Shown: positions 8,927 through 38,744 of the stretch, one piece after another | Layout: every line of letters begins with the position of its first letter | Position numbering within the stretch: the stretch's first letter is position 1 | DNA from: an uncultured Eubacteriales bacterium | GTDB lineage: Bacteria; Bacillota; Clostridia; Christensenellales; CAG-138 | Length of the DNA stretch: 64,000 bases | Reading direction: 5' to 3' | Assembly (NCBI GenBank): GCA_900542615.1 | Contig: UQOG01000002.1 | Location: 11,718-75,717 of the forward strand | Notes under the pieces: generated by a model | The model's database searches: none | Told to the model about the DNA's origin: nothing | The model's input: the letters and a program-made list of their open reading frames with translations, nothing else | Made by a program: the position numbers and the translations under genes

Positions 8927-9319
8927 ATGACGGTATTCAAGCTGGCAGGGCTTGCGTTGATCGCCCTTTGCGGGGCGGTGCTGCTGCGGGCCTACAAGCC
9001 GGAGATGGGCTTGCAATTGAGCATTGCCGCCTGCTTTTTGCTGCTCAGCTACGCCCTTACGGACATCGCCGCCATACGCCAGGCGGTGGAAGGGGTGACC
9101 AGCCGGTTCGGCTTGGGGGTGGAGCAGCTCAAGCTGGCGTTCAAGGTGCTGGGGATCGCCTATGTGGCCCAGTTTGCCGCGGAGGCCTGTAGGGACGCAG
9201 GGGAGAGCGCCATCGCCTCTAAGGTGGAATTGGCGGGCCGGGTGATGATCGTGGCGGCGGCGCTGCCGGCGCTGTTGGCGGTGCTGGAGCTGCTGCGGGG
9301 CCTGCTGGAGGGCGTATGA
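8927..9319 (+). CDS. spoIIIAD: stage III sporulation protein AD
   Basis: About 130-aa four-TM protein containing KVLGIAYVAQFAAEACRDAGESAIASKVELAGRV. ATG 8927; the track start, TTG 8921, is the alternative. Confidence 0.9.
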   Translation: MTVFKLAGLALIALCGAVLLRAYKPEMGLQLSIAACFLLLSYALTDIAAIRQAVEGVTSRFGLGVEQLKLAFKVLGIAYVAQFAAEACRDAGESAIASKVELAGRVMIVAAALPALLAVLELLRGLLEGV

Positions 9320-10464
9320 AAAAAGGCGTATGGCTGGTTTTGGCGTTGGCGCTGCTTTGGCCCTGCAAGGCCATGGCCCTGGAGGCGGAGCTGGAAAGCG
9401 TCCTGGACGCTACCCAGGCCCAATATGATCTGTCCGCCTGGGAGGAACGCTATGGCAGGCTGCCTGAACAGGTACAGGAATTGTGGGGACACGGGGATGT
9501 CAACAGCCTGATCGCCGGCTTTGCCCGGGGCGAGGGCGTGGAAGCAAAGGGCCTGTTGGAGGGGCTGTGGGAGACGGTAAAGGCCACCATCGCCCAGGGG
9601 CTTGGCTCCCTGGCCTCCATTTTGGGCATCGCCCTGCTGACCGGCCTGTTGGACGCCCTTCTGGGGGAAAAGCAAACCAATGTGAAGGAGATCGCCTCCT
9701 TCCTATGCTACGGCGTATGCGTTATGCTCCTTAGCGCCCTGTTGACCGATCAGCTGTCCATGACCGTAGGGGCTATCCAGGAGCTGTGCGGGCTGTTGGA
9801 GACGGTCTCCCCCCTGCTGGTCACCCTGCTGGCCGCCATTGGGGCCACGGCGTCGGCGGGGATGGTGCAGCCTATGTTCGTGCTGCTCAGCGGCACCGTA
9901 GCCAAGGTGGTCCAGGGGGTGTTGCTCCCCGGGGTCATGGGGGCGGGGGTATTGTATATTGTGGGGGCCTTGGCGGGCCGGGAACAGGTGAGCCACCTGG
10001 CGAATACCATCAAGTCCTTCGTCAAGTGGGCCATGGGAGGGATCACCACCATTTTCCTGGGGGCCATGGCCCTGGGGGGGATGAGCGCCGGCGGGGTGGA
10101 CAGCATCAGCTTCCGCACCATGAAGTATACCCTGGATAAATCCCTGCCCCTGGTTGGCGGGGTGGTGGCGGGAAGCCTGGACAGCGTGCGGGGCTGTACC
10201 ATCCTGATCAAGAACGCCGCAGGCATGGCGGGGGTGGTGATGGCCCTGGGTGTGGTGCTGATGCCCTTGCTCCAATTGATGGGCATGAGCCTTGCCTTTC
10301 AGTTGACCGGCGCCCTATGCGCCCAGGTGTCCGACAGCCGGATGCCCAAGATGTTGGCCGGGATGGCGGACATTTGCAGGTATATGTTTGCCTGTGCCGG
10401 CATGGTGGCCCTGATGTTCGTGCTGACCATGGGGCTGGTGGTGGCATTGGGCAGCGGAGGATAG
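9316..10464 (+). CDS. spoIIIAE: stage III sporulation protein AE
   Basis: 382 aa with a signal peptide (MKKGVWLVLALALLWPCKAMA) and multiple TM helices. ATGA overlap with spoIIIAD. Confidence 0.9.
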   Translation: MKKGVWLVLALALLWPCKAMALEAELESVLDATQAQYDLSAWEERYGRLPEQVQELWGHGDVNSLIAGFARGEGVEAKGLLEGLWETVKATIAQGLGSLASILGIALLTGLLDALLGEKQTNVKEIASFLCYGVCVMLLSALLTDQLSMTVGAIQELCGLLETVSPLLVTLLAAIGATASAGMVQPMFVLLSGTVAKVVQGVLLPGVMGAGVLYIVGALAGREQVSHLANTIKSFVKWAMGGITTIFLGAMALGGMSAGGVDSISFRTMKYTLDKSLPLVGGVVAGSLDSVRGCTILIKNAAGMAGVVMALGVVLMPLLQLMGMSLAFQLTGALCAQVSDSRMPKMLAGMADICRYMFACAGMVALMFVLTMGLVVALGSGG

Positions 10465-23683: not shown

Positions 23684-24940
23684 ATGAACAGAGGCAGGGG
23701 GAGCGCCGTTGTGCGCGGAATTGGTCTGCTGGTCTGCTTGCTGCTGATCAGCTTTAACTATGGGGAGCCGGCGCGGCTCGTCCGGGAGCTGCCGAGCCAG
23801 GCCTACATCGGATCGGACAGCGAAAGCCAGCTGGCTGGCATTGGCGCGCCCTTTTCCCTTCGGTATGGGCAAAACCAGCAGGCCGTATCCCAGGATCTAT
23901 CCCAGACCCTTTCCCAGGACGCGGCTGCCGGGTATTCGGTGCAGGTGGACCTATTCGGCCTGATCCCCCTGAAAAAGATCAGCTTTTATACCCGGGATTC
24001 CATCTGGGTGATGCCGGGCGGCTATTCGGTAGGCGTCACCCTGTATACCAAGGGAGCGTTGGTGGTGGGGCTGGGGGAATTTGAGACCCTGGATGGAACC
24101 GCCGTATGCCCGGCCCAGGCGGCGGGGATCCGGGTGGGGGACGTGATCCTGGGGGTAAACGGCACGGAGGTAAAGGATGCGGCCCATTTGACGGCCTTGT
24201 GCAACGAAACCCAAGGGGCGGTAGACCTGCGCCTTGCAAGGGGCGAGGAGACCTTGGAGGTGACCATCCAGCCGGCGGCAGACCGGCAGGATGGGATCTA
24301 TAAAATGGGCATGTGGGTGCGGGACAGTACGGCGGGCATCGGGACCTTATCCTTTTACGCCATGGATACCCTGCGTTACGGCGCATTGGGGCATCCCATC
24401 ACGGATGTGGATACGGGGTCGTTGCTGTCTGTGAAGACCGGGGAGATCGTGCAATCCAATGTGGTGGGCATCGCCCAGGGAAGCAGCGGCCTCCCGGGGG
24501 AGATCCAGGGCGCCTTCAGCACCGTCAGCCAGCGGTTGGGCACGCTGGAAACCAACAGCAATATCGGCATATATGGGCAGCTTTATTCTCCACTGGAAAA
24601 CCCGCTGTATCCGGAGGGGGTATTGCTTGCTTATCCGGAGGAGATTCATACGGGCGCCGCACAGCTATTGACTACGGTGGATGAAAACGGGGTACAGGCC
24701 TATGATTGCCAAATCATAAAAACCTACCCGCAGACCAGCGCCGCCGCCAAGGGGATGGTCGTCCAGATCACCGACCCAAGGCTCATCGAAAAGACGGGCG
24801 GGATCGTGCAAGGCATGAGCGGCAGCCCCATTGTGCAGGATGGGAAGCTGGCAGGCGCCGTAACCCACGTATTTGTCAACGATCCCCTTCGGGGATATTG
24901 CATTTACGCCCTCTGGATGTACCAACAAACCCTGAATTAG
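23684..24940 (+). CDS. spoIVB: SpoIVB peptidase (S55)
   Basis: 418 aa with a signal anchor, a PDZ domain (GIRVGDVILGVNGTEVKD) and the S55 catalytic region GMSGSPIVQDGKLAGAVTHVFVNDP. GAGGTG SD. Confidence 0.9.
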   Translation: MNRGRGSAVVRGIGLLVCLLLISFNYGEPARLVRELPSQAYIGSDSESQLAGIGAPFSLRYGQNQQAVSQDLSQTLSQDAAAGYSVQVDLFGLIPLKKISFYTRDSIWVMPGGYSVGVTLYTKGALVVGLGEFETLDGTAVCPAQAAGIRVGDVILGVNGTEVKDAAHLTALCNETQGAVDLRLARGEETLEVTIQPAADRQDGIYKMGMWVRDSTAGIGTLSFYAMDTLRYGALGHPITDVDTGSLLSVKTGEIVQSNVVGIAQGSSGLPGEIQGAFSTVSQRLGTLETNSNIGIYGQLYSPLENPLYPEGVLLAYPEEIHTGAAQLLTTVDENGVQAYDCQIIKTYPQTSAAAKGMVVQITDPRLIEKTGGIVQGMSGSPIVQDGKLAGAVTHVFVNDPLRGYCIYALWMYQQTLN

Positions 24941-24985
24941 TATAATAAATTATACAAAAAATAACATACATATATTCTAGATAGC

Positions 24986-25023
24986 AGCTGGAAATATCAT
25001 AATAATGGGATGTATTTCCAGCT
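24986..25023 (+). terminator. hairpin / weak terminator candidate after spoIVB
   Basis: Stem AGCTGGAAATA / TATTTCCAGCT (11 bp) with a 16-nt loop. The T-rich tract follows only after 9 nt. Confidence 0.4.
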
Positions 25024-25051
25024 TAGCTCTATATTTTTGTATAAAACCTAC

Positions 25052-25070
25052 TGTCGTCCCTTTGTATAAT
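25052..25070 (+). promoter_or_regulatory. near-0A-box plus extended -10-like element upstream of spo0A
   Basis: TGTCGTC (25052..25058) matches 6 of 7 positions of the TGTCGAA 0A box. It is followed by TGTATAAT (25063..25070), which is TG-n-TATAAT-like. No convincing -35 element. Confidence 0.3.
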
Positions 25071-25185
25071 TCATGCGCAAAAACTGTCTATGCATTGCGC
25101 TTGCTTCCAGATTCTGCTATACTTATCCTGTAGCTTGTACGTTAATAGTTTTTTCTTTTTTCCTTCCAGATCCTCTATTTACAAA

Positions 25186-25223
25186 ATAATTAAATATGTG
25201 GTATATAATTAAATATGTGGTAT
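25186..25223. repeat. perfect 19-bp tandem duplication (ATAATTAAATATGTGGTAT x2)
   Basis: Copies at 25186..25204 and 25205..25223 are identical and abut head to tail. The repeat ends 5 nt before the spo0A ATG. Confidence 0.9.
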
Positions 25224-25228
25224 TTGCT

Positions 25229-26017
25229 ATGAAACCTTATAGCTTGCTTATCATTACGGATAACGTAACTCTACGGGAAAGGCTGGAAACGTATTTCTCA
25301 TCCATTTCCCTGATTTCCCTGCTGCCTTCCGCAGTGGATGGACCATCCGGTGTGGTGCAGGCCAAGCTCAACGAACCCGATATGATGCTGCTGGATATGC
25401 TTATGCCCAAAATGGATGGCATCGCGGTGCTTCGGCGGCTACAGGCGGAAAATTGCTGTAAAAATACCCGCATATTCGCCTTGTCATCCATGAAGGGCGA
25501 GGAAGCCATCCAGCTGGGGGAGAGCTTAGGTGTTACCTATCAGATCCAAATGCCAACGGATGAAAGCCTGATTTTTAGCCGGATGATGGACTTTGCGCCG
25601 GATCGGGATGGGCGCGTTAAGCAATATCGCAACAGGATGCGGGAAAACGATTTGAATTTGCAGATTGACGAGGCGATTACTTTTCTGTTCCGGCATATGG
25701 GCTGCCCGGTGAACCTGGCCGGATATTATCAGGCGAAAACCGTTATTTCCTACTGTGTGCGCAATCGTGAAAGGGCCATTTTCCTTTCCAAGGAGGCATA
25801 TCCCTATGCCGCAAAAATCCATGGGGTAAACGCAAAGCAAATCGAACGGAATATCCGCAACCTCATCGAGGTCACCTGGACACGCGGCGATATGAAGGCC
25901 CAGCATAAGATCTTCGGCAACACCGTGGAAGACGAAAAATCCAGGCCCACCAATAAGGAGTTTATCGCAAACTTGACCCAGTATACCATTCGGCGTTTAC
26001 ATAAGACCCTGAGCTAA
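25229..26017 (+). CDS. spo0A: Spo0A-type sporulation response regulator (divergent)
   Basis: Receiver domain (LLIITDN, LLDMLMPKMDG) plus a Spo0A_C-type DNA-binding domain (AKQIERNIRNLIEVTWTRGD...SRPTNKEFIANL). Canonical position downstream of spoIVB. Start ATG 25229 has no SD; in-frame ATG 25196 is the alternative. Confidence 0.8.
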   Translation: MKPYSLLIITDNVTLRERLETYFSSISLISLLPSAVDGPSGVVQAKLNEPDMMLLDMLMPKMDGIAVLRRLQAENCCKNTRIFALSSMKGEEAIQLGESLGVTYQIQMPTDESLIFSRMMDFAPDRDGRVKQYRNRMRENDLNLQIDEAITFLFRHMGCPVNLAGYYQAKTVISYCVRNRERAIFLSKEAYPYAAKIHGVNAKQIERNIRNLIEVTWTRGDMKAQHKIFGNTVEDEKSRPTNKEFIANLTQYTIRRLHKTLS

Positions 26018-26499: not shown

Positions 26500-27075
26500 A
26501 TGAATATACAACATGCCAGCCGAATGCGGCTCGATAAGGGGCCTATGGAGCTCCTTGCCCAGCATCCATATTTGTTGCTTTACCTGGCCTTCTTTTTGGT
26601 GGCCGGGGTGGCTGCGGGCGTTTCCACCGCCAGGATGGCTCAGGAGGCGGAGCCCATACTGCCAAAGGCGTTTTCCCAGCTGCAAAACGGCACTTATCAG
26701 CTTTGGCCGGGGCTATTGCACGCCGTTGCGCTGAATGGTTTCCTGTATATGTTAGCCTTTGCGCCCGGGCTGTGGCCGCCGCTGCTGGTGGCCAGCGGGG
26801 TCCCGGTGGCATTAAAGGGGTTCTTTATGGGGGCGGGCATTTTTTATCTGGAGCAGGAGCTGGGGCTTGCGGGGCTTGGCTGGAGTATCCCCCTTTGCGT
26901 GGCGCCGGGGCTGTTCCTGGTGGCGGGGGTGATCCTGCGCGTCCTGTCGGATGTGAGCGATCGGGCGGGGCAGCCTGTGGACGGCCTGCCCCAGCGGGCG
27001 GCGGGTTTTGTGCTGCTGTGCATCCTGCTGGAAAGCGGGGCGGCGCCGGCGGCCCTGCGGGCATGGCTCAAATGA
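26500..27075 (+). CDS. SpoIIM-like (DUF95/stage II sporulation protein M family) membrane protein
   Basis: Four to five TM helices. The pattern LLHAVALNGFLYMLAFAPGLWPPLLVASGVPVALKGFFMGAGIFYL resembles the SpoIIM core. Start uncertain (26500, 26524 or 26545). Confidence 0.5.
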   Translation: MNIQHASRMRLDKGPMELLAQHPYLLLYLAFFLVAGVAAGVSTARMAQEAEPILPKAFSQLQNGTYQLWPGLLHAVALNGFLYMLAFAPGLWPPLLVASGVPVALKGFFMGAGIFYLEQELGLAGLGWSIPLCVAPGLFLVAGVILRVLSDVSDRAGQPVDGLPQRAAGFVLLCILLESGAAPAALRAWLK

Positions 27076-27157: not shown

Positions 27158-28336
27158 ATGGCACAGCGTAAACGGGCGATCATCGTGGTGCTGGACAGCG
27201 CGGGTATCGGCAGCCTGCCGGATGCGGCGGACTTCGGGGATGCGGGGGCCAACACCATTTGCAATATTTGTCGGGAGCGGGGCCATCTGGACCTGCCCAA
27301 CATGTACGCCATGGGGCTTTCCCGGATCCAGGGCGTCCATAGCCTGCCGGCCCATACAGGCGCGATCCATGGGGCGTACGGACGGGCCATGGAAAAAACC
27401 CATGCCAAGGATACCACCTGCGGCCATTGGGAAATGGCGGGGGTGATTATGGAGGAGCCCTTCCAAACCTATCCAAAGGGGTTCCCGCCTCGGATCATGG
27501 AGGCCTTTGAAGCCAAGATCGGCAGGGGCACCCTGGGGAATTGCGTGGCCTCGGGCACGGCCATCATCCAGGAGCTGGGGGACGAGCATGTGCGCACGGG
27601 GAAGCCCATCGTATACACCTCTGCGGACAGCGTTTTTCAGGTGGCGGCCCATGAGGCGGTGATCCCGCCGGCGGCGCTCTATGAGATGTGCGAAATCGCC
27701 CGGGCCATGCTGGTGGGGCCGGATCTGGTGGGCCGGGTGATCGCGCGGCCCTTCATCGGCAGCAACGGCCGTTACACCCGCACGGAGAACCGGCGGGATT
27801 TCGCGGTGCCCCCGGTGAAGGAAACCATCCTGGACGGCTTGACGGCCCAAGGGTACCAGACAATCGCCATAGGCAAGATCGAGGATATCTTTTGCCACCG
27901 GGGTATCGGCCTGGTAGACCACACCAAGAACAATCCGGATGGGATCGAAGCCACCTTGCGGTATGTGCAGGAGGGCGGCGGGGACCTGATCTTCACCAAC
28001 CTGGTGGATACGGACATGCTCTACGGCCACAGGAACGATGTGGAAGGGTATGCCAAGGCCCTGGAATATTTTGACCGGCAGCTGCCCCGGATCATGGCGG
28101 CCATGGGGCCGGAGGACCTTTTGATCGTAACGGCGGACCACGGCTGCGACCCCACCTATCCCGGCACGGACCACACCCGGGAGTATATTCCCATCCTGGC
28201 CTGGCGGCCCGGCCTGGACAGGGAGGTGGCGCTGGGTACCCGGGCGACCTTTGCGGATATCGGCAGCACCGCCTATGAACACATAACCGGCCGTCCCTGG
28301 ACCACGGGCCAATCCTTCTTAACGGCGCTGCAATAA
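27158..28336 (+). CDS. deoB: phosphopentomutase
   Basis: Contains AIIVVLDSAGIG, KDTTCGHWEMAG, VYTSADSVFQ, NLVDTDMLYGHRND and VTADHGCDPT. Start ATG 27158. Confidence 0.92.
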   Translation: MAQRKRAIIVVLDSAGIGSLPDAADFGDAGANTICNICRERGHLDLPNMYAMGLSRIQGVHSLPAHTGAIHGAYGRAMEKTHAKDTTCGHWEMAGVIMEEPFQTYPKGFPPRIMEAFEAKIGRGTLGNCVASGTAIIQELGDEHVRTGKPIVYTSADSVFQVAAHEAVIPPAALYEMCEIARAMLVGPDLVGRVIARPFIGSNGRYTRTENRRDFAVPPVKETILDGLTAQGYQTIAIGKIEDIFCHRGIGLVDHTKNNPDGIEATLRYVQEGGGDLIFTNLVDTDMLYGHRNDVEGYAKALEYFDRQLPRIMAAMGPEDLLIVTADHGCDPTYPGTDHTREYIPILAWRPGLDREVALGTRATFADIGSTAYEHITGRPWTTGQSFLTALQ

Positions 28337-28450
28337 ACCTTTGGCAAAAAAATAAGGAATGTTAGCCTGGAAAATCTCCTTTCCATCCGTATGGCACCCC
28401 CCTTTTCTTCATACGTATGTAGTAGTATGCATGAACAGGGGGGTATTTCT

Positions 28451-29593
28451 ATGGGAAAACGCTTGCTTGCCGCGGCCCTGGCGATGCTGTGGCTGCTGCC
28501 TGCCGGGACGGCCTGGGCAGATGGGGAAGCGGACCTGGAGCTTGCCGGCGCCAAGGCGGCGGTGCTGATGGAGCAGGGCGGCGGCCAGGTGGTATTTGGG
28601 GCCCAGGCGGATGAAAAGCTGGAAGTAGGCGGCTTATCCCGCTTGCCTGCCCTATTGGCCGTATGCGAAGGGATAGACGCGGGCCTGCTGGGGCTGGATA
28701 TGACGGTGACCGTGAGCCATGAAGCGGCGGCCATTCAGGGCCCCACCGCCTTTTTATCCCCAGGGGAGGCCATAGACGCCGGTTCTCTGCTCAAGGCCGG
28801 CATCATCATCACCGCCGGGGATGCCATCTATGCCCTGGGGGAAGCGGTGTTCGGCACGGAGGAAGCCTGCCTTATCCGGATCCGGGAGCGGCTGGCCAGC
28901 CTGAACATCCAGGCGGAATACGGGGATATGTTGGGAAGCGGTGTAAAGCTATCGGCCCGGGATCTAGCGGCCCTGGGAAGGGCGCTGATGGCAAGTCCGT
29001 CCTTTACCAGCTATAGCGGCATTTTCCTGGATACAATCACCCACCCGGACGGCCGGGAGACCCAGCTGGCCAGCTCCAACCGGTTGATCAAGTCCATGCC
29101 CGGCTGCAACGGCGTGGCCACCGGCTCCTCCAGCACGGCGGGGTATTGCGGCGTGTACAGCGTCAAGCGCAACGGGGCGACCTGGCTTTGCGCCGTGATC
29201 GGCGCGCCGGATTCCGCCGCCCGGTCCGCCGCGGCCACCGCCCTTTTGGAGCATGGCTTTGCCGCCTATGAGGTAAAAACCCTGGCCCGAGCGGAGTCCG
29301 TCTTGGTAGACGCGGTGCCTGTCCAGGGGGCGAAGCAGGCCAACGTGGCCCTGGTAGCGGCTGGCGACGCCATTTTGCTGCTGCCAAAAGGGGTCAGCTT
29401 TGAGACCCAATTTGATTTGCCGGAGTTCCTGAGCGCCCCTGTGTCCAGCCGGGAGGGGGTGGGCAGCGTAACCTACGTGGATGGGGATGGGGAAACCCTG
29501 TGTAGGGTGGACCTGCTGCCGGCGGAGGATATCCCCCAGGCCCAGGTGCTGGATTATACGGCCATGCTGTTGCAAAGATGGGTGCATGGCTAG
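28451..29593 (+). CDS. secreted PBP5/S11 D-Ala-D-Ala carboxypeptidase homologue with degenerate catalytic motifs (probable pseudoenzyme)
   Basis: Signal peptide MGKRLLAAALAMLWLLPAGTAWA. Collinear with the paralogue at 32887..34014, but SxxK, SxN and KTG are replaced (GGLSRLP, TAGD, ATG). Start ATG 28451 with an AACAGGGGGG SD. Confidence 0.75.
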   Translation: MGKRLLAAALAMLWLLPAGTAWADGEADLELAGAKAAVLMEQGGGQVVFGAQADEKLEVGGLSRLPALLAVCEGIDAGLLGLDMTVTVSHEAAAIQGPTAFLSPGEAIDAGSLLKAGIIITAGDAIYALGEAVFGTEEACLIRIRERLASLNIQAEYGDMLGSGVKLSARDLAALGRALMASPSFTSYSGIFLDTITHPDGRETQLASSNRLIKSMPGCNGVATGSSSTAGYCGVYSVKRNGATWLCAVIGAPDSAARSAAATALLEHGFAAYEVKTLARAESVLVDAVPVQGAKQANVALVAAGDAILLLPKGVSFETQFDLPEFLSAPVSSREGVGSVTYVDGDGETLCRVDLLPAEDIPQAQVLDYTAMLLQRWVHG

Positions 29594-29630: not shown

Positions 29631-29660
29631 TTGCCAAAAAGATCGGCCATAGCGTATAAT
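29631..29660 (+). promoter_or_regulatory. sigma-A-type promoter candidate for the M50 protease gene
   Basis: TTGCCA (29631..29636), an 18-nt spacer, then TATAAT (29655..29660). Confidence 0.45.
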
Positions 29661-29694: not shown

Positions 29695-30369
29695 TTGTTT
29701 GGTATTACGAGCTTTTTTTCCAACCCTTCGGGGATGCTGTCCCAGCTTCTTTATCGGATCCCGGCGATCCTGGTTGCCCTTTCCTTCCATGAATGGGCCC
29801 ACGCCTACGCGGCGTATAAGCTGGGCGACCCCACGGCCCGGAATATGGGCAGGATGACCATCAATCCCTTTGCCCATATCGATCCGCTGGGCTTTTTGAC
29901 CCTGTTGCTGTTCCGCTTCGGCTGGGCAAAGCCTGTGCCCATCTCCACCCGCTACTTTAAGAACGCCCGCCGGGATGAGCTGATCGTTTCCCTGGCCGGC
30001 GTGGCAGCCAATTTGATCTTGGCCTTTTTAAGCATGGGCGTGTTATATGTTTTCATCTTCACCACCGGGGTGAACCAGGCGGGGATGGAGCTATTTAGCA
30101 ACTTCTTTTTCCTGAATATCAGCTTGTGCATTTTTAACCTGCTGCCCATTCCGCCGCTGGATGGCTATCATGTGGCCCAGTGCCTGTTCCTGCGGGGGCA
30201 AAAGACCTATCGCGTTTTCGCATTCCTAGATCGGTACGGGTATATCATCCTGTTGGTGCTGCTCTTTACCGGGGTGCTGAGCACCATCATGTCCCCCCTG
30301 GTAAACGGAATCGTATACGGTATAGATGGAATATACCGGCTGATTTTCCAGGTGGCGGGGCTCCTGTAA
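29695..30369 (+). CDS. site-2 protease (peptidase M50) family zinc metalloprotease
   Basis: HEWAHAYAAYKLGDPTARNMGRMTINPFAHIDPLGFL (HExxH), several TM helices and NLLPIPPLDG. TTG start 8 nt after a GAGGTG SD. Confidence 0.8.
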   Translation: MFGITSFFSNPSGMLSQLLYRIPAILVALSFHEWAHAYAAYKLGDPTARNMGRMTINPFAHIDPLGFLTLLLFRFGWAKPVPISTRYFKNARRDELIVSLAGVAANLILAFLSMGVLYVFIFTTGVNQAGMELFSNFFFLNISLCIFNLLPIPPLDGYHVAQCLFLRGQKTYRVFAFLDRYGYIILLVLLFTGVLSTIMSPLVNGIVYGIDGIYRLIFQVAGLL

Positions 30370-32468: not shown

Positions 32469-32890
32469 AAACCACCATGGAAGAGATCAAGCAGATGGTG
32501 GACGTAAATACCGTGGTAGGGACCCCCATTCTAACGGGCGCGGAGACCATGATCCTGCCCGTATCCAAGGTGAGCGTAGGCTTCTTTTCCGGAGGCGGGG
32601 AATACGGCGCCGGGAAGCCGGAAAAGGGCATGTGCCCCATCGCAAAAAGCGGGGCGGAGCTATCGGCGGACCAGGCGGAAACCGGCTATCCCTTTGCGGG
32701 CGCGTCCATTGGCGGCATGACCCTGACGCCTTTGGCATTTTTGTCCGTGACCAATGGGAATGTGAAGGTGCTGCCCGCCCAGAGCAATACCACCCTGGAC
32801 CGGGCCATCGAGCTCATGCCCGAGGCCATCACCACCCTGGAGCAGGCCATCTCCGGCTTATGTAAGAAGGGGGCCGAAGAAGCGAAATGA
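32441..32890 (+). CDS. gerW: GerW/YtfJ-family spore protein
   Basis: Contains MAHPIENIMKTTMEEIKQMVDVNTVVGTPILTGAETMILPVSKVSVGFFSGGGEYG and a second half with GASIGGMTLTPLAFLSV. Confidence 0.85.
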   Translation: MAHPIENIMKTTMEEIKQMVDVNTVVGTPILTGAETMILPVSKVSVGFFSGGGEYGAGKPEKGMCPIAKSGAELSADQAETGYPFAGASIGGMTLTPLAFLSVTNGNVKVLPAQSNTTLDRAIELMPEAITTLEQAISGLCKKGAEEAK

Positions 32891-34014
32891 GGGGGCGGCA
32901 AGTAAGGCGGTATTTTGCAGGCGCCATCGCCGCCCTGTGTTTCTGGCTTGCCCTGCCCGCCATGGCGGCGCAGGAGCCGGTATCCAGCGCGGCGGGGGCC
33001 ATCCTGATGGAGGCGACCACCGGGAAGGTGCTCTACGCCAAGGACGCCCATAAGCAGCTGCCCATGGCCAGCACCACCAAGATCATGACGGCCCTGCTGG
33101 CCATCGAGCAAGGGGACCTGGACGAGCTGGTCACCACGGACGCCAGCGCCTATGGGGTGGAGGGCTCCAGTATGTATTTGCAGCTGGAGGAGACGATTAG
33201 CCTGCGGGATCTGCTCTATGGGTTGATGCTGCCCTCCGGGAACGATGCGGCGGTGGCCATCGCGGTACACATCGGCCATGGCGTGGAGCAGTTCGCCGAT
33301 ATGATGAACCAGCGGGCAAAGTCCCTGGGGGCGAAAAACACCTATTTTGTCACCCCCAACGGCCTGCCGGACCCGGACCATTATACCACCGCCTATGACC
33401 TTGCCTGCATCGCGGCGGCGGCCATGCAAAACCCCACCTTCCGGGAGATCGTATCCGCCCAGTATTACCGCACCAGCACCGGGGCGGTGCAGCGGACGTT
33501 TAAGAATAAGAACAAGATCCTGTGGAATTACGAGGGGGGAAACGGGGTTAAGACCGGCTATACCAAGGCGGCAGGCCGGTGCCTGGTGTTTGCGGCGGAG
33601 CGGGATGGAATGCAGCTGGTGGGGGTGCTGCTCAATTGCAACGACATGTTCGAGGAAGCGGAAACGCTGCTGGACTACGGCATGGAGCATTATGAGATGG
33701 TTCCCCTGGTAAAGGGCGGCCAGGCGGTGGCCAACCTGTACGTGGCGGATGGGATGAAAAACCGGTTGGCACTTTGCCCGGGGGAAGATATAATGGTACC
33801 AGTGGAAAAGGATGGCAGCAGCCTGTATAAGACCCGGGTGCTGCTGCCGGATATGGTAACGGCGCCCATAGAAGCCGGGCAGGTCTGCGGGGAAGTGGAG
33901 GTCCTGGAGGAGGACGGCACCCTTCGGGCCAAATTCGACCTGCTTGCCATGGAGGATGTGGATCAGGCCACGGTGGGCTTCTATATCCAAAAGCTGTTCC
34001 GGAATATGACGTAG
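32887..34014 (+). CDS. D-alanyl-D-alanine carboxypeptidase (PBP5/S11 family, catalytic motifs intact)
   Basis: Signal peptide present. Carries SxxK (MASTTKIMT), SxN (LPSGNDAA) and KTG (GVKTGYT), plus a C-terminal PBP5_C domain. ATGA overlap with gerW. Confidence 0.88.
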   Translation: MRGRQVRRYFAGAIAALCFWLALPAMAAQEPVSSAAGAILMEATTGKVLYAKDAHKQLPMASTTKIMTALLAIEQGDLDELVTTDASAYGVEGSSMYLQLEETISLRDLLYGLMLPSGNDAAVAIAVHIGHGVEQFADMMNQRAKSLGAKNTYFVTPNGLPDPDHYTTAYDLACIAAAAMQNPTFREIVSAQYYRTSTGAVQRTFKNKNKILWNYEGGNGVKTGYTKAAGRCLVFAAERDGMQLVGVLLNCNDMFEEAETLLDYGMEHYEMVPLVKGGQAVANLYVADGMKNRLALCPGEDIMVPVEKDGSSLYKTRVLLPDMVTAPIEAGQVCGEVEVLEEDGTLRAKFDLLAMEDVDQATVGFYIQKLFRNMT

Positions 34015-34068
34015 GCGGTTCCAGGTTGCGCTTTGTTGCCTTAGGCGGAGGCTGCTTGGAGGACGTAA

Positions 34069-34090
34069 GCCCTGCCCAGGCAGGGCATTT
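34069..34090 (+). terminator. weak terminator candidate after the carboxypeptidase gene
   Basis: Stem GCCCTGCC / GGCAGGGC with a very short loop, followed by ATTT. Confidence 0.35.
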
Positions 34091-34146
34091 CGGTGCGGCC
34101 GGGGGTAGGCGGCGCCAAGGATGTACATACGGAGGGGGAAATCGGG

Positions 34147-34866
34147 ATGCGGCTGCAAAAGTATATGGCGGAGGCGGGGGTGGCTTCCCGCCGCAAGTGC
34201 GAAGATCTGATCCAGGCGGGCCGGGTCAAGGTCAACGGCCAGGTGGCCATCCTGGGGACCTGCGTGGAGCCGCAACAGGACCTGGTGGAGCTGGATGGGA
34301 AGCCCCTTGGCGAAAGCCAACGGAAGGTGACGGTGATCCTCCATAAGCCGAGGGGGGTCATGTGTACGGCCCAGGATCCTCAGGGAAGGCCCACGGTGGG
34401 GGAATATGTACGGGACCTGCCGGCGCGGGTATACAACGCGGGCCGGCTGGATTACGATTCCGAAGGGCTGCTGGTAATGACCAACGATGGTGAGCTGGCC
34501 TATCGGCTCACCCATCCCAAGTTTTGCATGGATAAGACCTATTCCGCCATCTGCGACGGGCTGCTGACAAAGGAACAGATCGCCGCGCTGGAGCAGGGAG
34601 TCCTTTTGGAGGATGGGCCTACCCACCCTGCCAAGGTGGAGGAGGTGTATCGGCTGCGCAATGGCAATACCGCCTTTAACATCACCATTCACGAGGGCCG
34701 GAACCGGCAGGTGCGGCGGATGCTGGAGGCGGTGGGCCATGAGACGCTGGCCCTCAAGCGGGTGGCGCTGGGGCCCCTGCGGCTGGGAGACCTGCCCAGC
34801 GGGGATTACCGGCCCCTGACGGACCAGGAATGGGACGCCCTGCACGCATGGCTGGAAAGCCATTAG
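34147..34866 (+). CDS. rluB: pseudouridine synthase, RsuA/RluB family
   Basis: S4 domain (MRLQKYMAEAGVASRRKCEDLIQAGRVKVNG) and catalytic motif AGRLDYDSEGLLVMTNDG. GGAGGGGGA SD before ATG 34147. Confidence 0.85.
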   Translation: MRLQKYMAEAGVASRRKCEDLIQAGRVKVNGQVAILGTCVEPQQDLVELDGKPLGESQRKVTVILHKPRGVMCTAQDPQGRPTVGEYVRDLPARVYNAGRLDYDSEGLLVMTNDGELAYRLTHPKFCMDKTYSAICDGLLTKEQIAALEQGVLLEDGPTHPAKVEEVYRLRNGNTAFNITIHEGRNRQVRRMLEAVGHETLALKRVALGPLRLGDLPSGDYRPLTDQEWDALHAWLESH

Positions 34867-34926
34867 CAAAAAATATGGCAAACCCGAAAGGGATTAAAAT
34901 ATCATTGGTAAAATTGACAAATCTCC

Positions 34927-35064: not shown

Positions 35065-35475
35065 ATGCAAAACATCAGTCCGTGGTTTGTGCTTGTGCTT
35101 GGCATGGCGACGGTTTTCATCGGGCTCATTTGCTTGATCCTGCTCACAAAGATTATGAGCGCTGTTATGGTCAAGAACAAAGGCGCGGCGCCCGCTGCCC
35201 AGGAAAAAGCCAAAATGCCTGCGGCGCAGGCCGCGGCCGTTCCCGCAGCGCTGAACATAGGGGACCGCAAGCTGTTGGATGCCATTCTTGCCGCATCCAT
35301 TGCATGTGCCATGGGGACAGAGCCCCAGGGCTTGCGCATCCATTCCATTCGCTGCTTGTCCGCGGCCCCGGCGGGGGATCGCGGCCAGTTTGTAGCCGCG
35401 GTATCCGCGGCGGTAGCCACGGCCATGGGCACCGAGCCCCAGGGCTTACGGATCCACAGCATCAAACGCGTCTAA
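35065..35475 (+). CDS. OadG-family small subunit of a Na+-translocating decarboxylase
   Basis: N-terminal TM helix WFVLVLGMATVFIGLICLILLTKIM, an Ala/Pro-rich linker and two copies of AMGTEPQGLRIHSI(R/K). AGGGAGG SD. Confidence 0.7.
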   Translation: MQNISPWFVLVLGMATVFIGLICLILLTKIMSAVMVKNKGAAPAAQEKAKMPAAQAAAVPAALNIGDRKLLDAILAASIACAMGTEPQGLRIHSIRCLSAAPAGDRGQFVAAVSAAVATAMGTEPQGLRIHSIKRV

Positions 35476-35517: not shown

Positions 35518-35901
35518 ATGCGTAAATTCATCGTCAACGTCAACGGTTCTTCTTATGAAGTTGAAGTAGAAGAGATCGTCGCCGGCGCCGCGCCCGTTGC
35601 GGCTCCCGCCGCCCCTGCCGCCCCCGCTGCGCCCGCGCCTGCTCCTGCTCCCGCCCCTGTGGCTGCGCCCGTGCAGGCTGCCGCCGGCCAGGAGTCCGTG
35701 GAAGCGCCCATGCCCGGCAACATCATGGATGTGCGGGTCAAGGTGGGCGACGCGGTGAAGAGCGGCGATGTGCTGGCCATTTTGGAAGCGATGAAGATGG
35801 AAAATGAGATCATGGCCCCCCGGGATGGCAAGGTGGTGGCCGTAAACGTGGCCAAGGGCGCTACCGTCAATTCCGGCGACGTGCTGGTGGTGCTGGCCTA
35901 A
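35518..35901 (+). CDS. biotin carboxyl carrier subunit (biotinyl domain)
   Basis: Pro/Ala linker followed by a biotinyl/lipoyl domain with the attachment motif LEAMKMENEI. 127 aa. Confidence 0.85.
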   Translation: MRKFIVNVNGSSYEVEVEEIVAGAAPVAAPAAPAAPAAPAPAPAPAPVAAPVQAAAGQESVEAPMPGNIMDVRVKVGDAVKSGDVLAILEAMKMENEIMAPRDGKVVAVNVAKGATVNSGDVLVVLA

Positions 35902-35948
35902 GGCGTGTCCCCGCCCTCCCGGCGCGCCCGACCAGCCGCCGGGGGAGC

Positions 35949-36005
35949 GCCCCATTCGCCCAGGCCCGGACGAATGGGGCCCAACATGGCTGCTTATAAG
36001 CCATG
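35949..36005 (+). other. two intra-operon stem-loops between the biotin carrier and beta-subunit genes
   Basis: GCCCCATTCG / CGAATGGGGC (10 bp, 35949..35980) and CATGGCT / AGCCATG (7 bp, 35985..36005). No T-run follows either. Confidence 0.4.
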
Positions 36006-36028
36006 CCGACTGACCTAAGGAGTTCTTC

Positions 36029-37225
36029 ATGCAGAATTATATCGAACCAATTCAGGACTTTCTTAAGTCCACGGGTTTTTCTCAGCTGGTCGAAAATCCG
36101 CTGTGCCTGGTGATGATCGCCATCGCCTGCCTGTTGATGTATTTGGCCATCGTGAAGAAGTACGAACCCATGCTGCTGTTGACCATCGCCTTCGGTATGC
36201 TGCTGACCAACCTGCCCGGCGCCAACATGTACCATACCTACCTCTATGAGGGCGGACATGTGAACTGGGCCCAGTTCAGCCAGGATGCGGGCTTGATCGA
36301 CTATCTGTACCTGGGCGTGAAGCTGGGGATCTACCCATCCCTGATCTTCATGGGGGTAGGCGCCATGACGGACTTTGGCCCCTTGATCGCCAACCCCCGC
36401 AGCCTGCTGCTGGGCGCGGCTGCCCAGCTGGGCATCTTCGTGGCCTTCATGGGCGCGCTGGCCCTTTCCGATATTTTCCCCGGGATCCAGTTTGGCTATA
36501 ACGAAGCCGCGTCCATCGGCATCATCGGCGGCGCGGACGGCCCCACGGCCATCTATGTGACCTCCCAGTTGGCCCCGGCCCTCCTGGGCCCCATCGCGGT
36601 GGCGGCCTATAGCTACATGGCCCTGGTCCCCGTGATCCAGCCCCCCATCATGAAGGCGCTGACCACCAAGGCGGAACGCAAGATCGTCATGAAACAGCTT
36701 CGCCCGGTTTCCAAGGCGGAAAAGATCGTATTCCCCATCGTGGTGACCATTTTCGTTTCCCTGCTCCTGCCCTCCGCCGCGCCGTTGATCGGTATGCTGA
36801 TGCTGGGCAACCTGTTCCGGGAATGCGGGGTGGTGGACCGCCTCAGCAAAACCGCTCAGAACGAGCTGATCAACATCGTTACCATTTTCCTGGGGGTTTC
36901 CGTTGGCGCCACCGCCACCGCCGAAGCCTTCCTCAACGGGCAGACCTTGGGCATCTTCGCCATGGGCGTGATCGCATTCGCCTTTGGTACGGCTGGCGGC
37001 GTGCTGCTTGCCAAGCTGATGAACCTGTTCTCCAAGGATAAGATCAATCCCCTTATCGGCTCCGCCGGCGTATCCGCCGTGCCCATGGCCGCCCGGGTAT
37101 CCCAGGTGGTGGGCCAGAAGGAGAATCCCGGTAACTTCCTGCTCATGCATGCCATGGGCCCCAATGTGGCCGGCGTTATCGGCAGCGCCATTGCCGCGGG
37201 CGTGTTCCTGGCGCTGTTCCTCTAA
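36029..37225 (+). CDS. oadB: Na+-translocating decarboxylase beta subunit (OadB/GcdB/MmdB family)
   Basis: 398-aa polytopic membrane protein with family motifs [39 protein letters not shown] and [15 protein letters not shown]. Confidence 0.9.
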
Positions 37226-37263
37226 TGCCCGTGCCCTCTACCGTCTTTTAGGAGGTTTATTGA

Positions 37264-38727
37264 ATGGCACATAAACTCATGATCACCGATACCATCCTGC
37301 GCGATGCCCACCAGTCCCAGGCGGCCACCCGTATGCGGGTGGAGGATATGCTCCCCGCCTGCGATATCCTGGACAGCATCGGCTATTATTCCCTGGAATG
37401 CTGGGGCGGCGCCACCTTTGACAGCTGCCTGCGCTTCCTGAACGAAGATCCCTGGGACCGGCTCCGCAAGCTGAAGAAGGCACTGCCCCATACCAAGCTG
37501 CAGATGCTGTTCCGGGGCCAGAACATCCTGGGCTACAAGCACTATGCCGACGACGTGGTGGAGCAGTTCTGCCGCAAGGCCATTGAAAACGGCATCGATG
37601 TGATCCGTATTTTCGACGCCCTGAACGATGTGCGCAACCTGGAAGCCGCCATCAAGTACACCAAGAAGTACGGCGGCATCTGCGAGCCCGCCATCAGCTA
37701 CACCATCAGCCCGGTACACAACGAGGATTATTTCGTCAAGCTGGCCAAGGAACTGGTGCAGATGGGCGCGGACAATATCTGCATCAAGGATATGGCCAAC
37801 CTGCTGCTGCCCTATGACGCCTATTCCCTGGTGAAGCGGCTCAAGAGCGAGGTGGATGTGCCCATTCACCTGCATACCCACAACACCACCGGCACCGGCG
37901 ATATGACCTATCTGATGGCCGTGCAGGCGGGGGTGGATATCGTGGATTGCGCCCTGTCCCCCTTGGCCAACGGTACGTCCCAGCCCGCCACGGAATCCCT
38001 GGTGGCGACCCTGAAGGGGACGGAATACGATACCGGCTACGACCTGGAGCTGCTGGCCAAGGCGGCCAAGCATTTCCGCGGCGTGGCCCAGAAGCTCAAG
38101 GAGCAGGGCAGCCTGGACCCCAAGGTGCTCAGCGTGGATACCAACACCCTGATCTACCAGGTGCCCGGCGGTATGCTCAGCAACCTGATCTCCCAGCTGA
38201 AGCAGGCGGGGAAGGAGGAGAAGTACTATGACGTGCTGGCGGAGATCCCGGTGGTGCGCAAGGACTTCGGCTATCCGCCCCTGGTGACCCCCACCAGCCA
38301 GATCGTAGGCACCCAGGCCGTGTTCAACGTGCTCATGGGCCGGTACAAGACCTTCCCCAAGGAATCCAAGGCCTTGCTGGCCGGCGAATACGGCGCCCTG
38401 CCCGGCGTGGTCAACGAGGAAGTGCGCAAGATGGCCATTGGCGACAAGGAGCCCATTACCTGCCGCCCGGCCGATCTCCTGGCTCCCGAGCTGGATAAAT
38501 ACCGGGAGGAGATCAAGGACTACATGGAGCAGGAAGAGGACGTGCTCAGCTACGCCCTGTTCCCCCAGGTGGCCATGAAGTTCTTCGAGGCCAGGAAGGC
38601 GGCCCGGGAACCCAAGCCCGCAGAACCCGCGCCCGCCCCGGCGCCTGCACCGGTTGCGGCCCCCGCGCCTGCGCCTGCTGCGCCCGCCGGCGTCACCACC
38701 CTGTATGTGGAGGATCTCTCCATCTAA
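37264..38727 (+). CDS. oadA: oxaloacetate decarboxylase alpha-type carboxyltransferase subunit (no biotinyl domain)
   Basis: Contains ITDTILRDAHQSQAATRM, IFDALND and HLHTHNTTGTG (HMGL-like TIM barrel), plus a PYC_OADA domain. It ends after a Pro/Ala linker without an AMKM motif. Confidence 0.88.
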   Translation: MAHKLMITDTILRDAHQSQAATRMRVEDMLPACDILDSIGYYSLECWGGATFDSCLRFLNEDPWDRLRKLKKALPHTKLQMLFRGQNILGYKHYADDVVEQFCRKAIENGIDVIRIFDALNDVRNLEAAIKYTKKYGGICEPAISYTISPVHNEDYFVKLAKELVQMGADNICIKDMANLLLPYDAYSLVKRLKSEVDVPIHLHTHNTTGTGDMTYLMAVQAGVDIVDCALSPLANGTSQPATESLVATLKGTEYDTGYDLELLAKAAKHFRGVAQKLKEQGSLDPKVLSVDTNTLIYQVPGGMLSNLISQLKQAGKEEKYYDVLAEIPVVRKDFGYPPLVTPTSQIVGTQAVFNVLMGRYKTFPKESKALLAGEYGALPGVVNEEVRKMAIGDKEPITCRPADLLAPELDKYREEIKDYMEQEEDVLSYALFPQVAMKFFEARKAAREPKPAEPAPAPAPAPVAAPAPAPAAPAGVTTLYVEDLSI

Positions 38728-38744
38728 CAACCCTTACATGCTGG

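Follow-up and report, generated by a model that had tools for sequence, protein, structure and literature searches.

The window, by which we mean the whole stretch of 64,000 nucleotides that was analysed, carries a gene directly 3' of deoB that encodes a degenerate homologue of the PBP5-type D,D-carboxypeptidases, referred to here as pseudo-DacF (gene pseudo-dacF); punA is missing from the window. The features of the locus are collected in Table 1. A 400-aa open frame that begins at 28391 contains the ORF, whose ATG at 28451 agrees with the N-termini of the orthologues and lies 8 nt downstream of a GGGGGG Shine-Dalgarno (SD) sequence, in line with an earlier note on this DNA, which had judged the SD to be good. 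The predicted signal peptide has no lipobox Cys. The AF2 model is of low pLDDT over residues 1-26 and places an N-terminal helix at residues 2-14.

Table 1. Features at the pseudo-dacF locus (positions in the window)
Feature	Position	Strand	Basis
deoB (phosphopentomutase), conserved upstream neighbour defining the dacF-type slot	27158..28336	+	NCBIfam PRK05362, 512 bits; synteny
GTATGG box, candidate -35 of a sporulation-type promoter, adjoins the hairpin on its 5' side	28389..28394	+	G[CT]AT[GTA] in relatives
SD-sequestering hairpin	28395..28445	+	MFE -28 kcal/mol, z = -4.0
Hairpin 5' arm (anti-SD CCCCCC)	28395-28408	+	
Hairpin loop, carries CATACGTA at 28410-28417, candidate -10 box	28409-28431	+	
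Hairpin 3' arm, SD GGGGGG at 28438-28443, T-rich tail after	28432-28445	+	
pseudo-DacF CDS (degenerate PBP5/S11 homologue, 380 aa)	28451..29593 including stop codon	+	ORF list, Pfam, AF2, Foldseek
Predicted Sec signal peptide, residues 1-23, MGKRLLAAALAMLWLLPAGTAWA, cleavage after AWA, then DGE	28451..28519	+	sequence pattern
Penicillin-binding (S11) domain, residues 33-253	28547..29209	+	Pfam PF00768
Former SxxK, now G61-L62-S63-R64 (nucleophile Ser to Gly; general-base Lys to Arg)	28631..28642	+	alignments, translation
Former SxN, now T121-A122-G123, then retained D124-A125	28811..28819	+	alignments, translation
Former KTG, now A223-T224-G225 (Lys lost; Thr-Gly and next Ser-Ser kept)	29117..29125	+	alignments, translation
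Arg258, 35 residues past the KTG Lys position; invariant in dead family, intermediates and intact relatives	29222..29224	+	alignments
PBP5_C-type beta-sandwich domain, residues 273-362	29267..29536	+	Pfam PF07943; beta strands in AF2 model
C-terminal amphipathic helix, VLDYTAMLLQRWVHG	29546..29590	+	helix at residues 366-379 in AF2 model
Intact S11 paralogue with STTK / SGN / KTG, dacB-type slot scpA-scpB-x-ytfJ-dac-rluB	32887..34014	+	Pfam S11, 214 bits; synteny

The description of the product as a secreted 380-aa PBP5-type homologue, collinear with the intact paralogue and including the PBP5_C part, is borne out. The Peptidase_S11 (PF00768) match scores 73.4 bits against a cut-off of 27.6, which places the S11 homology above the curated threshold, and PBP5_C (PF07943) scores 25.0 bits against a cut-off of 21.2; the alignment with the paralogue spans the full length of the protein (27% identity, E = 1e-28). 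Structure prediction, which the earlier note had called for, returns a PBP5 fold (pLDDT 91, pTM 0.81). The best Foldseek matches of the model are PBP5 and PBP6, with TM 0.8-0.87 to E. coli PBP5 and ~345 residues superposed, and phmmer searches of the PDB match PBP5, PBP6 and DacD structures (E = 1e-24 to 4k91). From Pfam, AF2 and Foldseek together, the two-domain PBP5 fold with its C-terminal beta-sandwich is kept whole. The last 16 residues have a hydrophobic moment of 0.45, and a C-terminal Trp-containing motif (WVHG in pseudo-DacF) is common to intact relatives; by analogy with PBP5-type enzymes, the C-terminal helix is a probable peripheral membrane anchor. NCBIfam has no model specific to this family, with every match far under cut-off, and its members are labelled in databases as 'D-alanyl-D-alanine carboxypeptidase', 'serine hydrolase' or 'hypothetical protein'.

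The BLASTP, phmmer-to-PDB and MAFFT alignments are concordant in the motif columns, and they uphold the reading that all three catalytic motifs have been replaced, with G-L-S-R, T-A-G and A-T-G standing at the SxxK, SxN and KTG positions. The same substitutions are present in 68/68 orthologous loci, none of which retains the KTG Lys or the SxN Asn. Within the core family (n=138), the nucleophile position 61 is Gly in 138/138 members, and position 64, that of the SxxK Lys, carries R in 91 members and otherwise K (44), H (2) or S (1). Gly123 at the SxN Asn position is found in 134/138 members, while position 121 varies (C, S, T, L, N). As for the former KTG, T224 is present in 138/138 and G225 in 137/138, and position 223 is occupied by A, G, S, L or F, with K in 0/138. 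Recurrence of this kind, in every orthologous locus and with Gly at every nucleophile position, is far beyond chance.

We also searched for a shifted SxxK/SxN/KTG triad. The protein does contain two S-x-x-K tetrads (S112LLK and S163GVK) and two S-x-N triplets (S150LN and S208SN) by chance. These would be the raw material for an intact triad hidden by an alignment artefact, an explanation that we regard as exceedingly improbable. The independent alignment methods agree on the motif columns, the model superposes on PBP5 over most of its length, and a [KHR][ST]G triplet is absent from the whole pseudo-DacF protein. Moreover, the residues of the chance motifs vary across the family (with E, S, A, M or D found at 112 and T, A, S or G at 163); the Ser and Lys are unconserved, and therefore no shifted catalytic triad exists. 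As far as sequence analysis goes, pseudo-DacF would be unable to work as an acyl-enzyme S11 carboxypeptidase, as had been proposed.

Loss of all three catalytic motifs would also be the mark of a decaying pseudogene, a functionless relic of a duplicated carboxypeptidase, but this explanation is highly improbable given how the gene has been maintained. Intact, full-length orthologues occur in at least 68 species-level genomes at 34-88% identity, in Ca. Pelethousia, Christensenellales and related uncultured gut Clostridia, all of the host genomes being uncultured or MAG-derived. The dN/dS values are 0.05-0.27 over 15 species pairs (0.134 for the window against locus L001), which is only ~1.5 times the level of the intact paralogue (0.07-0.17). 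Across 19 diverse family members 44 columns are invariant, and conservation among the family loci extends to the upstream control region, the SD, the start codon and the signal peptide. A profile search of 50%-identity cluster representatives again returned the core family among its top matches. From these sequence comparisons we conclude that the gene is under purifying selection and is not a decaying pseudogene. The view that it is retained, put forward in the earlier note, gains further from conserved synteny and from 14 newly constrained positions, both described below. Pseudo-DacF thus has the hallmarks of a pseudoenzyme: the fold persists while residues essential for catalysis are gone, and the protein is conserved across species under purifying selection. 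A literature search found no description of a catalytically dead S11/DacF family.

The gene sits in a conserved order, spoIVB-spo0A-x-deoB-pseudo-dacF-M50-scpA-scpB-x-ytfJ-dacB-rluB, and the spoIIIA operon likewise lies inside the window. In relatives that bear punA, the same slot, spoIVB-spo0A-deoB-punA-S11, holds intermediate or intact enzymes. We take the gene order in B. subtilis to be drm-punA-dacF, which puts dacF in the position after deoB(drm)-punA. This synteny makes pseudo-dacF the positional orthologue of the sporulation carboxypeptidase that is linked to deoB(-punA), i.e., it occupies the dacF position. The earlier suggestion of a role in cortex synthesis or germination gains support from this dacF slot within a sporulation gene neighbourhood. 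The syntenic intact orthologues came up only when intermediates served as queries; the nearest intact matches of the first search (P0040, P0286 and P0277) are non-syntenic and were rejected as orthologues.

In neighbour-joining (NJ) trees built with the catalytic columns removed, the core dead clade is recovered in 97/100 bootstrap replicates, and the sister group of the degenerate clade includes the syntenic intact enzymes P0229 and P0237. The intermediates are partly degenerate, being of the types SK/SN/xTG and GK/SN/xTG; P0198 (SK/SN/ATG) exemplifies the first and P0213 (GK/SN/STG) the second. Monophyly of the core together with the intermediates has an NJ bootstrap of just 41/100, so a single stepwise path of decay is not established. 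The dead family is large and old; this, the existence of partly degenerate intermediates and the persistence of the SxxK Lys in roughly one member in three all go beyond what the earlier note had described.

The old cleft is partly retained and partly remodelled. Among the invariant positions of the dead family are T224, G225, R258, H198, N210 and D124. Arg258 we take to be the equivalent of E. coli PBP5 Arg248, which likewise lies 35 residues past the KTG Lys and presumably has a role in substrate docking. In addition, 14 positions are newly constrained (62, 65, 76, 88, 100, 101, 106, 117, 120, 126, 205, 231, 234 and 355), and there are 4 switches. Judged by sequence position relative to the known motifs, the new constraints cluster round the old cleft. 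Since the docking residues (the beta-3 Thr-Gly, the Arg at +35, and the His and Asn loops) are invariant and new constraints surround the cleft, the cleft most likely still binds the stem peptide.

These data also bear on whether pseudo-DacF has remained an enzyme by rewiring its active site, for example around Ser226/Ser227, Cys233, His198 or Thr/Ser/Cys121, and carries out a different peptidoglycan reaction or a slow non-acyl-enzyme hydrolysis. H198, S226, Y232 and R258 show little or no variation, C233 is found in 123/138 members, and all of these residues lie in or near a cleft surrounded by new constraints. Some intermediates, moreover, keep SxxK and SxN with the KTG Lys alone missing, and activity may have faded gradually. 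However, H198, S226, C233, Y232 and R258 are conserved in intact relatives too, and they belong to an ancestral framework rather than to a newly recruited set; a new C233/H198 catalytic pair was considered and rejected on this ground. Position 121 is variable, all three substitutions are to small inert residues (Gly, Gly, Ala), and the family conserves no SxxK, SxN or K[ST]G elsewhere. We consider a rewired enzyme improbable.

A further explanation is that the dead PBP5 fold serves as a protein-protein scaffold or an allosteric regulator of another envelope protein rather than as a peptidoglycan binder. Candidate partners would be the intact DacB-type paralogue, the SpoVD/SpoVE-type cortex synthases or a lytic enzyme. 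Purifying selection in spite of missing catalytic residues is consistent with such a role, newly constrained positions not seen in intact relatives form the pattern expected of a new interface, and the intact paralogue, ~3 kb off, co-occurs with pseudo-dacF in loci extending that far. The new constraints adjoin the old motifs, however, and with the docking Thr-Gly and Arg invariant, ligand binding fits at least as well. The operon structure indicates no partner either, the gene appearing to be monocistronic. On balance a scaffold is a serious candidate but a rather unlikely one.

Upstream of the gene, a candidate promoter and a hairpin that would sequester the SD overlap. A conserved arrangement G[CT]AT[GTA]-N15-17-[CA]ATA is present, and a G[CT]A[TA] box is found at 29/48 loci, where shuffles would give 11. 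Across loci, the duplex between the SD and upstream sequence has a median of -18.2 kcal/mol compared with -10.7 kcal/mol in shuffles, 84% of loci being at -12 or lower, and the hairpin arms covary between lineages. Six other genes checked for an SD-to-upstream duplex gave no such signal, and Rfam has no match within 28250-28550. The GCAT box and the anti-SD/SD hairpin are common to the syntenic intact orthologues, where GCATA or GCATG occurs at the same place 5' of the gene, and are absent from non-syntenic S11 genes. The partly degenerate intermediates of this slot are likewise preceded by this control region. That the hairpin is merely the deoB terminator is an interpretation we did not adopt; the hairpin is still present in loci L044-L060, which have a separate canonical terminator 5' of it.

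No sigma-A-type signal was found upstream of pseudo-dacF, and the downstream M50 gene has a sigma-70-type promoter of its own at 29631-29660. The gene therefore appears to be monocistronic, forming its own transcription unit. Sigma-factor scoring used B. subtilis consensus sequences (tabulated in PMC3416734); controls behaved as they should, with sigma-A for deoB and M50 and sigma-F/G for spoIVB. With these consensus sequences, sigma-F and sigma-G score no better than shuffles upstream of pseudo-dacF, and sigma-E/K-type scores are weakly above them. A two-block promoter pattern is enriched (22/68 against ~2) but was set aside as sigma evidence, being derived from the same sequences and hence circular. 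From orthology and neighbourhood we infer that expression of pseudo-dacF is sporulation-specific.

The known protein closest to this picture is DacF of B. subtilis and C. difficile, a forespore PBP5-type D,D-carboxypeptidase that depends on sigma-F/sigma-G. Like DacF, pseudo-DacF has S11 and PBP5_C domains preceded by a signal peptide and followed by a C-terminal amphipathic helix, and it occupies the same slot after deoB(-punA), near spoIVB-spo0A; its nearest intact relatives are the syntenic enzymes. Unlike DacF, it has no nucleophile Ser, and the Lys of KTG and the Asn of SxN are gone as well; in its family the SxxK Lys is often Arg. With the S11 archetypes E. coli PBP5/PBP6 (DacA/DacC) and P. 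aeruginosa PBP5 it shares 21-26% identity, the fold, the Thr-Gly of KTG and the Arg at +35, but all catalytic residues are substituted, and the omega-like loop reads GPTAF where these enzymes have GGSQ. The intact paralogue has the same domains and neighbourhood, yet it keeps STTK, SGN and KTG, is distant from the dead family in the tree and has no SD-sequestering hairpin.

A cell-wall enzyme fold conserved in the absence of catalysis has precedents. EnvC/NlpD and SpoIIQ are dead LytM/M23 domains that act as regulators or scaffolds, SpoIIQ doing so in sporulation. Their M23 fold is unrelated to S11; the parallel with pseudo-DacF concerns how the proteins act and does not make it a member of their group.

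Taken together, these observations lead us to favour, with somewhat better than even confidence, a reading in which pseudo-DacF is a secreted, DacF-derived pseudoenzyme that acts in the spore envelope as a non-hydrolysing binder of peptidoglycan stems or as a regulator. Its ancestor would have been the sporulation D,D-carboxypeptidase of the deoB(-punA) slot. The protein would be made in sporulation, exported to the space where the germ-cell wall and cortex are built, and probably held at the membrane by its C-terminal amphipathic helix. There the cleft would most likely bind the stem peptide, with its D-Ala-D-Ala or D-Ala C-terminus, and not cleave it. Pseudo-DacF would then read or cap stem peptides without hydrolysing them, or would use the cleft to regulate a wall enzyme; by either route, cross-linking would be tuned instead of trimmed. 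On the other hand, exchanging Ser, Asn and Lys for Gly, Gly and Ala deprives the substrate of several hydrogen-bond partners, and affinity for the stem peptide could have been lost rather than preserved. A protein partner or a different ligand could account equally well for the new constraints.

A more far-reaching version, which we put forward tentatively and hold to be doubtful, is that the cleft has been remodelled into a new site for a ligand and that pseudo-DacF founds a 'reader' class of PBP pseudoenzymes. The features of such a site would be Gly, Gly and Ala at the motifs, Arg or Lys at 64, the invariant Thr224 and Arg258, and the 14 new constraints. The protein might recognise a structure of the spore wall, possible targets being an uncleaved pentapeptide, a tetrapeptide or a cortex-specific muropeptide, and might shield it from a DacB-type trimming enzyme or signal the status of the wall in cortex synthesis or germination. 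The promoter within the hairpin would, in the same proposal, silence read-through mRNA and so limit synthesis to the gene's own sporulation promoter.

Annotation uniformly regards low-molecular-weight PBPs as enzymes. A dead DacF conserved in a whole branch of gut Clostridia suggests that part of the carboxypeptidase repertoire predicted there is non-enzymatic. The family is also a natural experiment on the PBP5 scaffold without catalysis, with a graded series that runs from intact enzymes through loss of KTG only and loss of the Ser to full loss, and this series offers ready-made constructs for finding the step that abolishes penicillin binding and activity. The SD-sequestering hairpin round a candidate promoter would be a compact insulation device, one that may be of interest for developmental genes more widely. 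If cross-linking of the cortex or germ-cell wall is indeed tuned by binding and not by cutting, pseudo-DacF would represent a new type of control in spore wall assembly.

The open frame in the ORF list spans 28391 to 29593 on the + strand, and the protein start set by the ATG at 28451, with GGGGGG 8 nt upstream, lines up with all orthologues at the N-terminus; the coordinates 28451-29593 proposed in the earlier note therefore stand. The product, a degenerate PBP5/S11 homologue of 380 aa, begins MGKRLLAAALAMLWLLPAGTAWA/DGE, by inspection a typical predicted Sec signal, and residues 1-26 are disordered or low-confidence in the AlphaFold2 model. Among PDB structures, this model (31-sequence alignment, mean pLDDT 91.1, pTM 0.81) is best matched by PBP5 and PBP6 from E. 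coli and P. aeruginosa, with TM 0.8-0.87 on the target. A C-terminal helix with a conserved Trp is common to the protein and its intact relatives. Here it covers residues 366-379, with a hydrophobic moment of 0.45, and by analogy with PBP5 it probably anchors the protein peripherally to the membrane.

The intact S11 paralogue at 32887..34014 scores 214.5 (Peptidase_S11) and 54.4 (PBP5_C) bits in Pfam (see the table for the degenerate homologue), and the two proteins can be aligned along their entire length (27% identity, E = 1e-28), in agreement with the collinearity claimed earlier. The earlier note also held that all three catalytic motifs are replaced, and BLASTP, phmmer against PDB chains and MAFFT bear this out, each placing identical residues at the three motifs. 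By chance the protein contains two S-x-x-K tetrads (S112LLK and S163GVK) and two S-x-N, and a search throughout it for [KHR][ST]G found none. The Ser and Lys of these tetrads vary among relatives, so the shifted but intact triad considered in that note is not present. An alignment artefact is refuted by the agreement of the three methods and by the unconserved chance Ser and Lys, and we regard its probability as negligible.

Features of the degenerate S11 homologue (residue numbering), residue counts in the 138 core-family sequences, and the upstream hairpin (window positions)
Feature	Position	Observation
Peptidase_S11	33-253	Pfam 73.4 bits, cut-off 27.6
PBP5_C	273-362	Pfam 25.0 bits, cut-off 21.2
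Former SxxK	61-64	G61-L-S-R64 (BLASTP, phmmer, MAFFT)
Former SxN	121-123	T121-A-G123 (BLASTP, phmmer, MAFFT)
Former KTG	223-225	A223-T-G225 (BLASTP, phmmer, MAFFT)
Nucleophile Ser	61	Gly 138/138
SxxK Lys	64	R 91, K 44, H 2, S 1
SxN Ser	121	C, S, T, L, N
SxN Asn	123	Gly 134/138
KTG Lys	223	Lys never
KTG Thr	224	Thr 138/138
KTG Gly	225	Gly 137/138
SD hairpin, 5' arm (anti-SD)	28395-28408	
SD hairpin, loop	28409-28431	
SD hairpin, 3' arm	28432-28445	

A word-indexed protein search returned 39 close relatives with the same substitutions, down to 37% identity, and the first intact S11 enzymes turned up only below 33%. The species scan sampled each species by a single genome and yielded 68 loci; every one comes from uncultured Clostridia or MAGs, under the labels Candidatus Pelethousia and Christensenellales/-aceae or from bins labelled Oscillospiraceae, Acutalibacteraceae or Feifaniaceae; the closest orthologue, from Ca. 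Pelethousia gallinarum, is 88% identical. The open frame is present in every one of these loci, a contig end cutting only L037. The nucleophile position is Gly in 68/68, as is that of the SxN Asn ('AGDA' in 66/68, 'AGDS' in L023 and L067), while the KTG Lys position holds A, G, S, M, L, F, I or V; T-G-S comes next, and after it S, replaced by A in two loci. The counts in the table extend this to the core family, pooled from all searches. Pairwise Nei-Gojobori dN/dS over 15 species pairs is 0.05-0.27 (0.134 between the window and locus L001), compared with 0.07-0.17 for the intact paralogue and 0.03-0.14 for deoB in the same pairs. Purifying selection on the gene is clear, if slightly weaker than on its neighbours. 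The open frames and this selection sustain the earlier view of a retained gene and refute a decaying pseudogene, which we consider very improbable. We hold with high confidence that the protein is both dead and under selection.

The synteny around the gene is highly stable: spoIVB - spo0A - (small membrane ORF) - deoB - [window gene] - M50-type peptidase - scpA - scpB - x - ytfJ/GerW - intact S11 - rluB. In the scpAB-ytfJ-dac-rluB arrangement, the second S11 gene encodes the DacB-type enzyme. When 1.84 billion cluster representatives were searched exhaustively with a profile, partly degenerate S11 proteins came up beyond the core family, some lacking the KTG Lys alone (SK/SN/ATG or MTG at the three motifs, e.g., P0097, P0101, P0198-P0201) and many without the Ser and the KTG Lys that keep SxN (GK/SN/xTG, e.g., P0091, P0099, P0202-P0217). 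An NJ tree arranges these intermediates as a grade, with intact 'DGxKTGST' enzymes on one side and the core family on the other. Once the five catalytic columns are left out, bootstrap support for the core clade is 97/100, and its sister group includes P0229 and P0237; the graded intermediates suggest a stepwise loss of catalytic residues, with core plus intermediates at just 41/100.

The intermediate P0213, in a complete 2.6-Mb genome, lies in the order argR-recN-spoIVB-spo0A-x-deoB-punA-[S11]-lysA-M50-scpA-scpB-x-ytfJ-dacB-rluB, and P0198 follows deoB-punA. The intact P0237 and P0229 occupy spo0A-deoB-punA-[S11] and spoIVB-spo0A-deoB-punA-[S11], respectively; the intact S11 genes P0040, P0286 and P0277 lie outside the deoB-punA slot. 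We take deoB(drm)-punA-dacF to be the dacF position on the B. subtilis map, and we therefore infer, with good confidence, that the window gene is the positional orthologue of dacF in a catalytically dead form.

Several further observations concern this region. Partly degenerate S11 proteins in the same slot are P0091-P0160 and P0198-P0217, with loci L070 (7001-8149) and L071 (7001-8140). The purine nucleoside phosphorylase gene punA is missing between deoB and the S11 gene in the window (28337-28450) and in most core-family loci; the order deoB-punA-[S11] is found in intermediate and intact syntenic relatives (L070, L071, L074, L075). A hydrophobic 191-aa ORF between spo0A and deoB (26500-27075) has no match in Pfam or NCBIfam; loci L001-L005 hold a homologue at 45-83% identity (tblastn), and L070 has in the same place a 197-aa gene with no Pfam match. 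Farther downstream, in a 136-aa ORF at 35065-35475 (+), a 15-residue motif is repeated almost exactly (AMGTEPQGLRIHSIR / AMGTEPQGLRIHSIK), possibly through duplication of part of a decarboxylase small subunit; the neighbours of this ORF, labelled from translations only, are a biotinyl-carrier-like ORF (35518-35901), which has an Ala/Pro-rich linker, and a carboxyltransferase-like ORF. At 32686-34881 (-), 35867-37150 (-) and 37222-38730 (-), very long antisense ORFs (427-731 aa) overlap real + strand genes and were rejected as artefacts of 60% G+C, with low second-position-GC patterns on the wrong strand.

No sigma-70-type promoter was found between deoB and the window gene, and the downstream M50 gene has a good, near-consensus one of its own in front of it (TTGCCA-18-TATAAT, 29631-29660); the window gene therefore looks monocistronic. 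The M50-type peptidase gene (29695..30369) is directly followed by scpA and then scpB, and this unit appears to be housekeeping and transcribed separately from the dead PBP gene, despite their near-universal adjacency.

The SD of the window gene forms the 3' arm of a hairpin (MFE -28 kcal/mol, z = -4). Across orthologues, SD-to-upstream pairing has a median of -18.2 versus -10.7 kcal/mol in shuffled upstream sequence and reaches -12 kcal/mol or lower in 84% of orthologues versus 34% of shuffles; no such signal was found at spoIVB, deoB, M50, scpA, ytfJ or dacB, and the hairpin region has no Rfam match. The arms change between lineages yet stay complementary (CCTCCTTTGCC/GGCAAAGGAGG, CTCCCGCGC/GCGCGGGAG, CACTCCCGC/GCGGGAGTG). 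A G[CT]AT[GTA] box (GTATG, 28389-28393 in the window) usually lies just 5' of the 5' arm and a [CA]ATA box (CATACGTA, 28410-28417) in the loop, the former type in 29/48 versus 11 in shuffles and the latter in 32/48 versus 18. A GCAT box with the hairpin also precedes syntenic intact orthologues and an intermediate and is absent before non-syntenic S11 genes; the combination therefore belongs to the dacF-type locus, and the dead form has inherited it. The arrangement (window 28389-28450) was also noted upstream of the S11 gene across L001-L068, L070, L074 and L075.

With the anti-SD between the two boxes, this looks like a promoter nested in an SD-sequestering hairpin. The boxes would serve a sporulation-type promoter as its -35 and -10 elements; transcripts begun there would lack the anti-SD and be translated, and read-through transcripts from upstream would either terminate or stay untranslated. 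When B. subtilis sigma consensus sequences (table in PMC3416734) were used for scoring, the controls came out correctly, sigma-A for deoB and M50 and sigma-F/G for spoIVB; for the window gene it gave no sigma-A signal and a weak sigma-E/K-type enrichment. The B. subtilis dacF product is a forespore sigma-F/sigma-G carboxypeptidase (regulon membership in PMC3097244 and PMC3416734), and C. difficile dacF is under sigma-G control (PMC3789822). The window holds spoIIIAA-AE, spoIVB and spo0A, so the host carries a sporulation gene set. These genes run as spoIIIAA, AB, AC/AD, AE, then spoIVB and spo0A, at 7330-10464 and 23684-26017, and a GAATAAT...CATACACAT arrangement upstream of spoIIIAA resembles a sigma-E promoter.

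Comparing the 138 core sequences with 169 intact relatives, we find 24 columns conserved and identical in both sets, including Thr224-Gly225, Arg258, Asn210, Thr204, Asp124 and Cys233; His198 is present in 138/138 core and 125/169 intact sequences. Four columns are conserved but switched (S61G, M66P, N123G, T227S), 31 lose constraint in the core family, including Ser121 and Lys223, and 14 are newly constrained (L62, L65, D76, V88, A100, F101, E106, A117, I120, I126, E205, G231, G234, L355). Most of the 14 adjoin the three former motifs or sit in the omega-like loop, where GGSQ has become GPTAF. Arg258 lies 35 residues past the KTG Lys position, which is presumably the spacing of Arg248 in E. 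coli PBP5, and in PBP5 the KTG Thr and the Arg248-type Arg bind the terminal carboxylate of the substrate. Judged by sequence position, these columns suggest that the cleft no longer has its chemistry, still has its docking elements and has gained new specific requirements. A rewired enzyme, in which other residues had taken over catalysis, is improbable, as its candidate residues were already present in the ancestor and every substitution introduces a small, inert residue.

By homology and fold the protein belongs to the S11/PBP5 superfamily, with DacF-type enzymes as its closest known proteins, but it lacks three of the defining catalytic features and should not carry a carboxypeptidase annotation. 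Public annotations of family members read 'D-alanyl-D-alanine carboxypeptidase', 'serine hydrolase' or 'hypothetical protein', and full-text searches of a literature library turned up no account of an S11/DacF family that is catalytically dead. The closest known logic, by analogy only, is that of EnvC, NlpD and SpoIIQ, which are dead cell-wall hydrolase homologues. As a whole, we lean slightly toward a secreted, membrane-associated, non-hydrolysing DacF derivative made in sporulation, in which the retained docking elements of the cleft would bind stem peptides, or the cleft would control a wall enzyme, such that cross-linking is modulated instead of D-Ala being trimmed. Taken alone, stem-peptide binding is a tentative assignment that falls somewhat short of an even chance, and a pure protein-protein scaffold or regulator is rather unlikely. 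On the sequence evidence, these proteins would constitute a pseudoenzyme family that is solid and testable and whose evolutionary path is clear; its control region is unusual and its hosts are uncultured.
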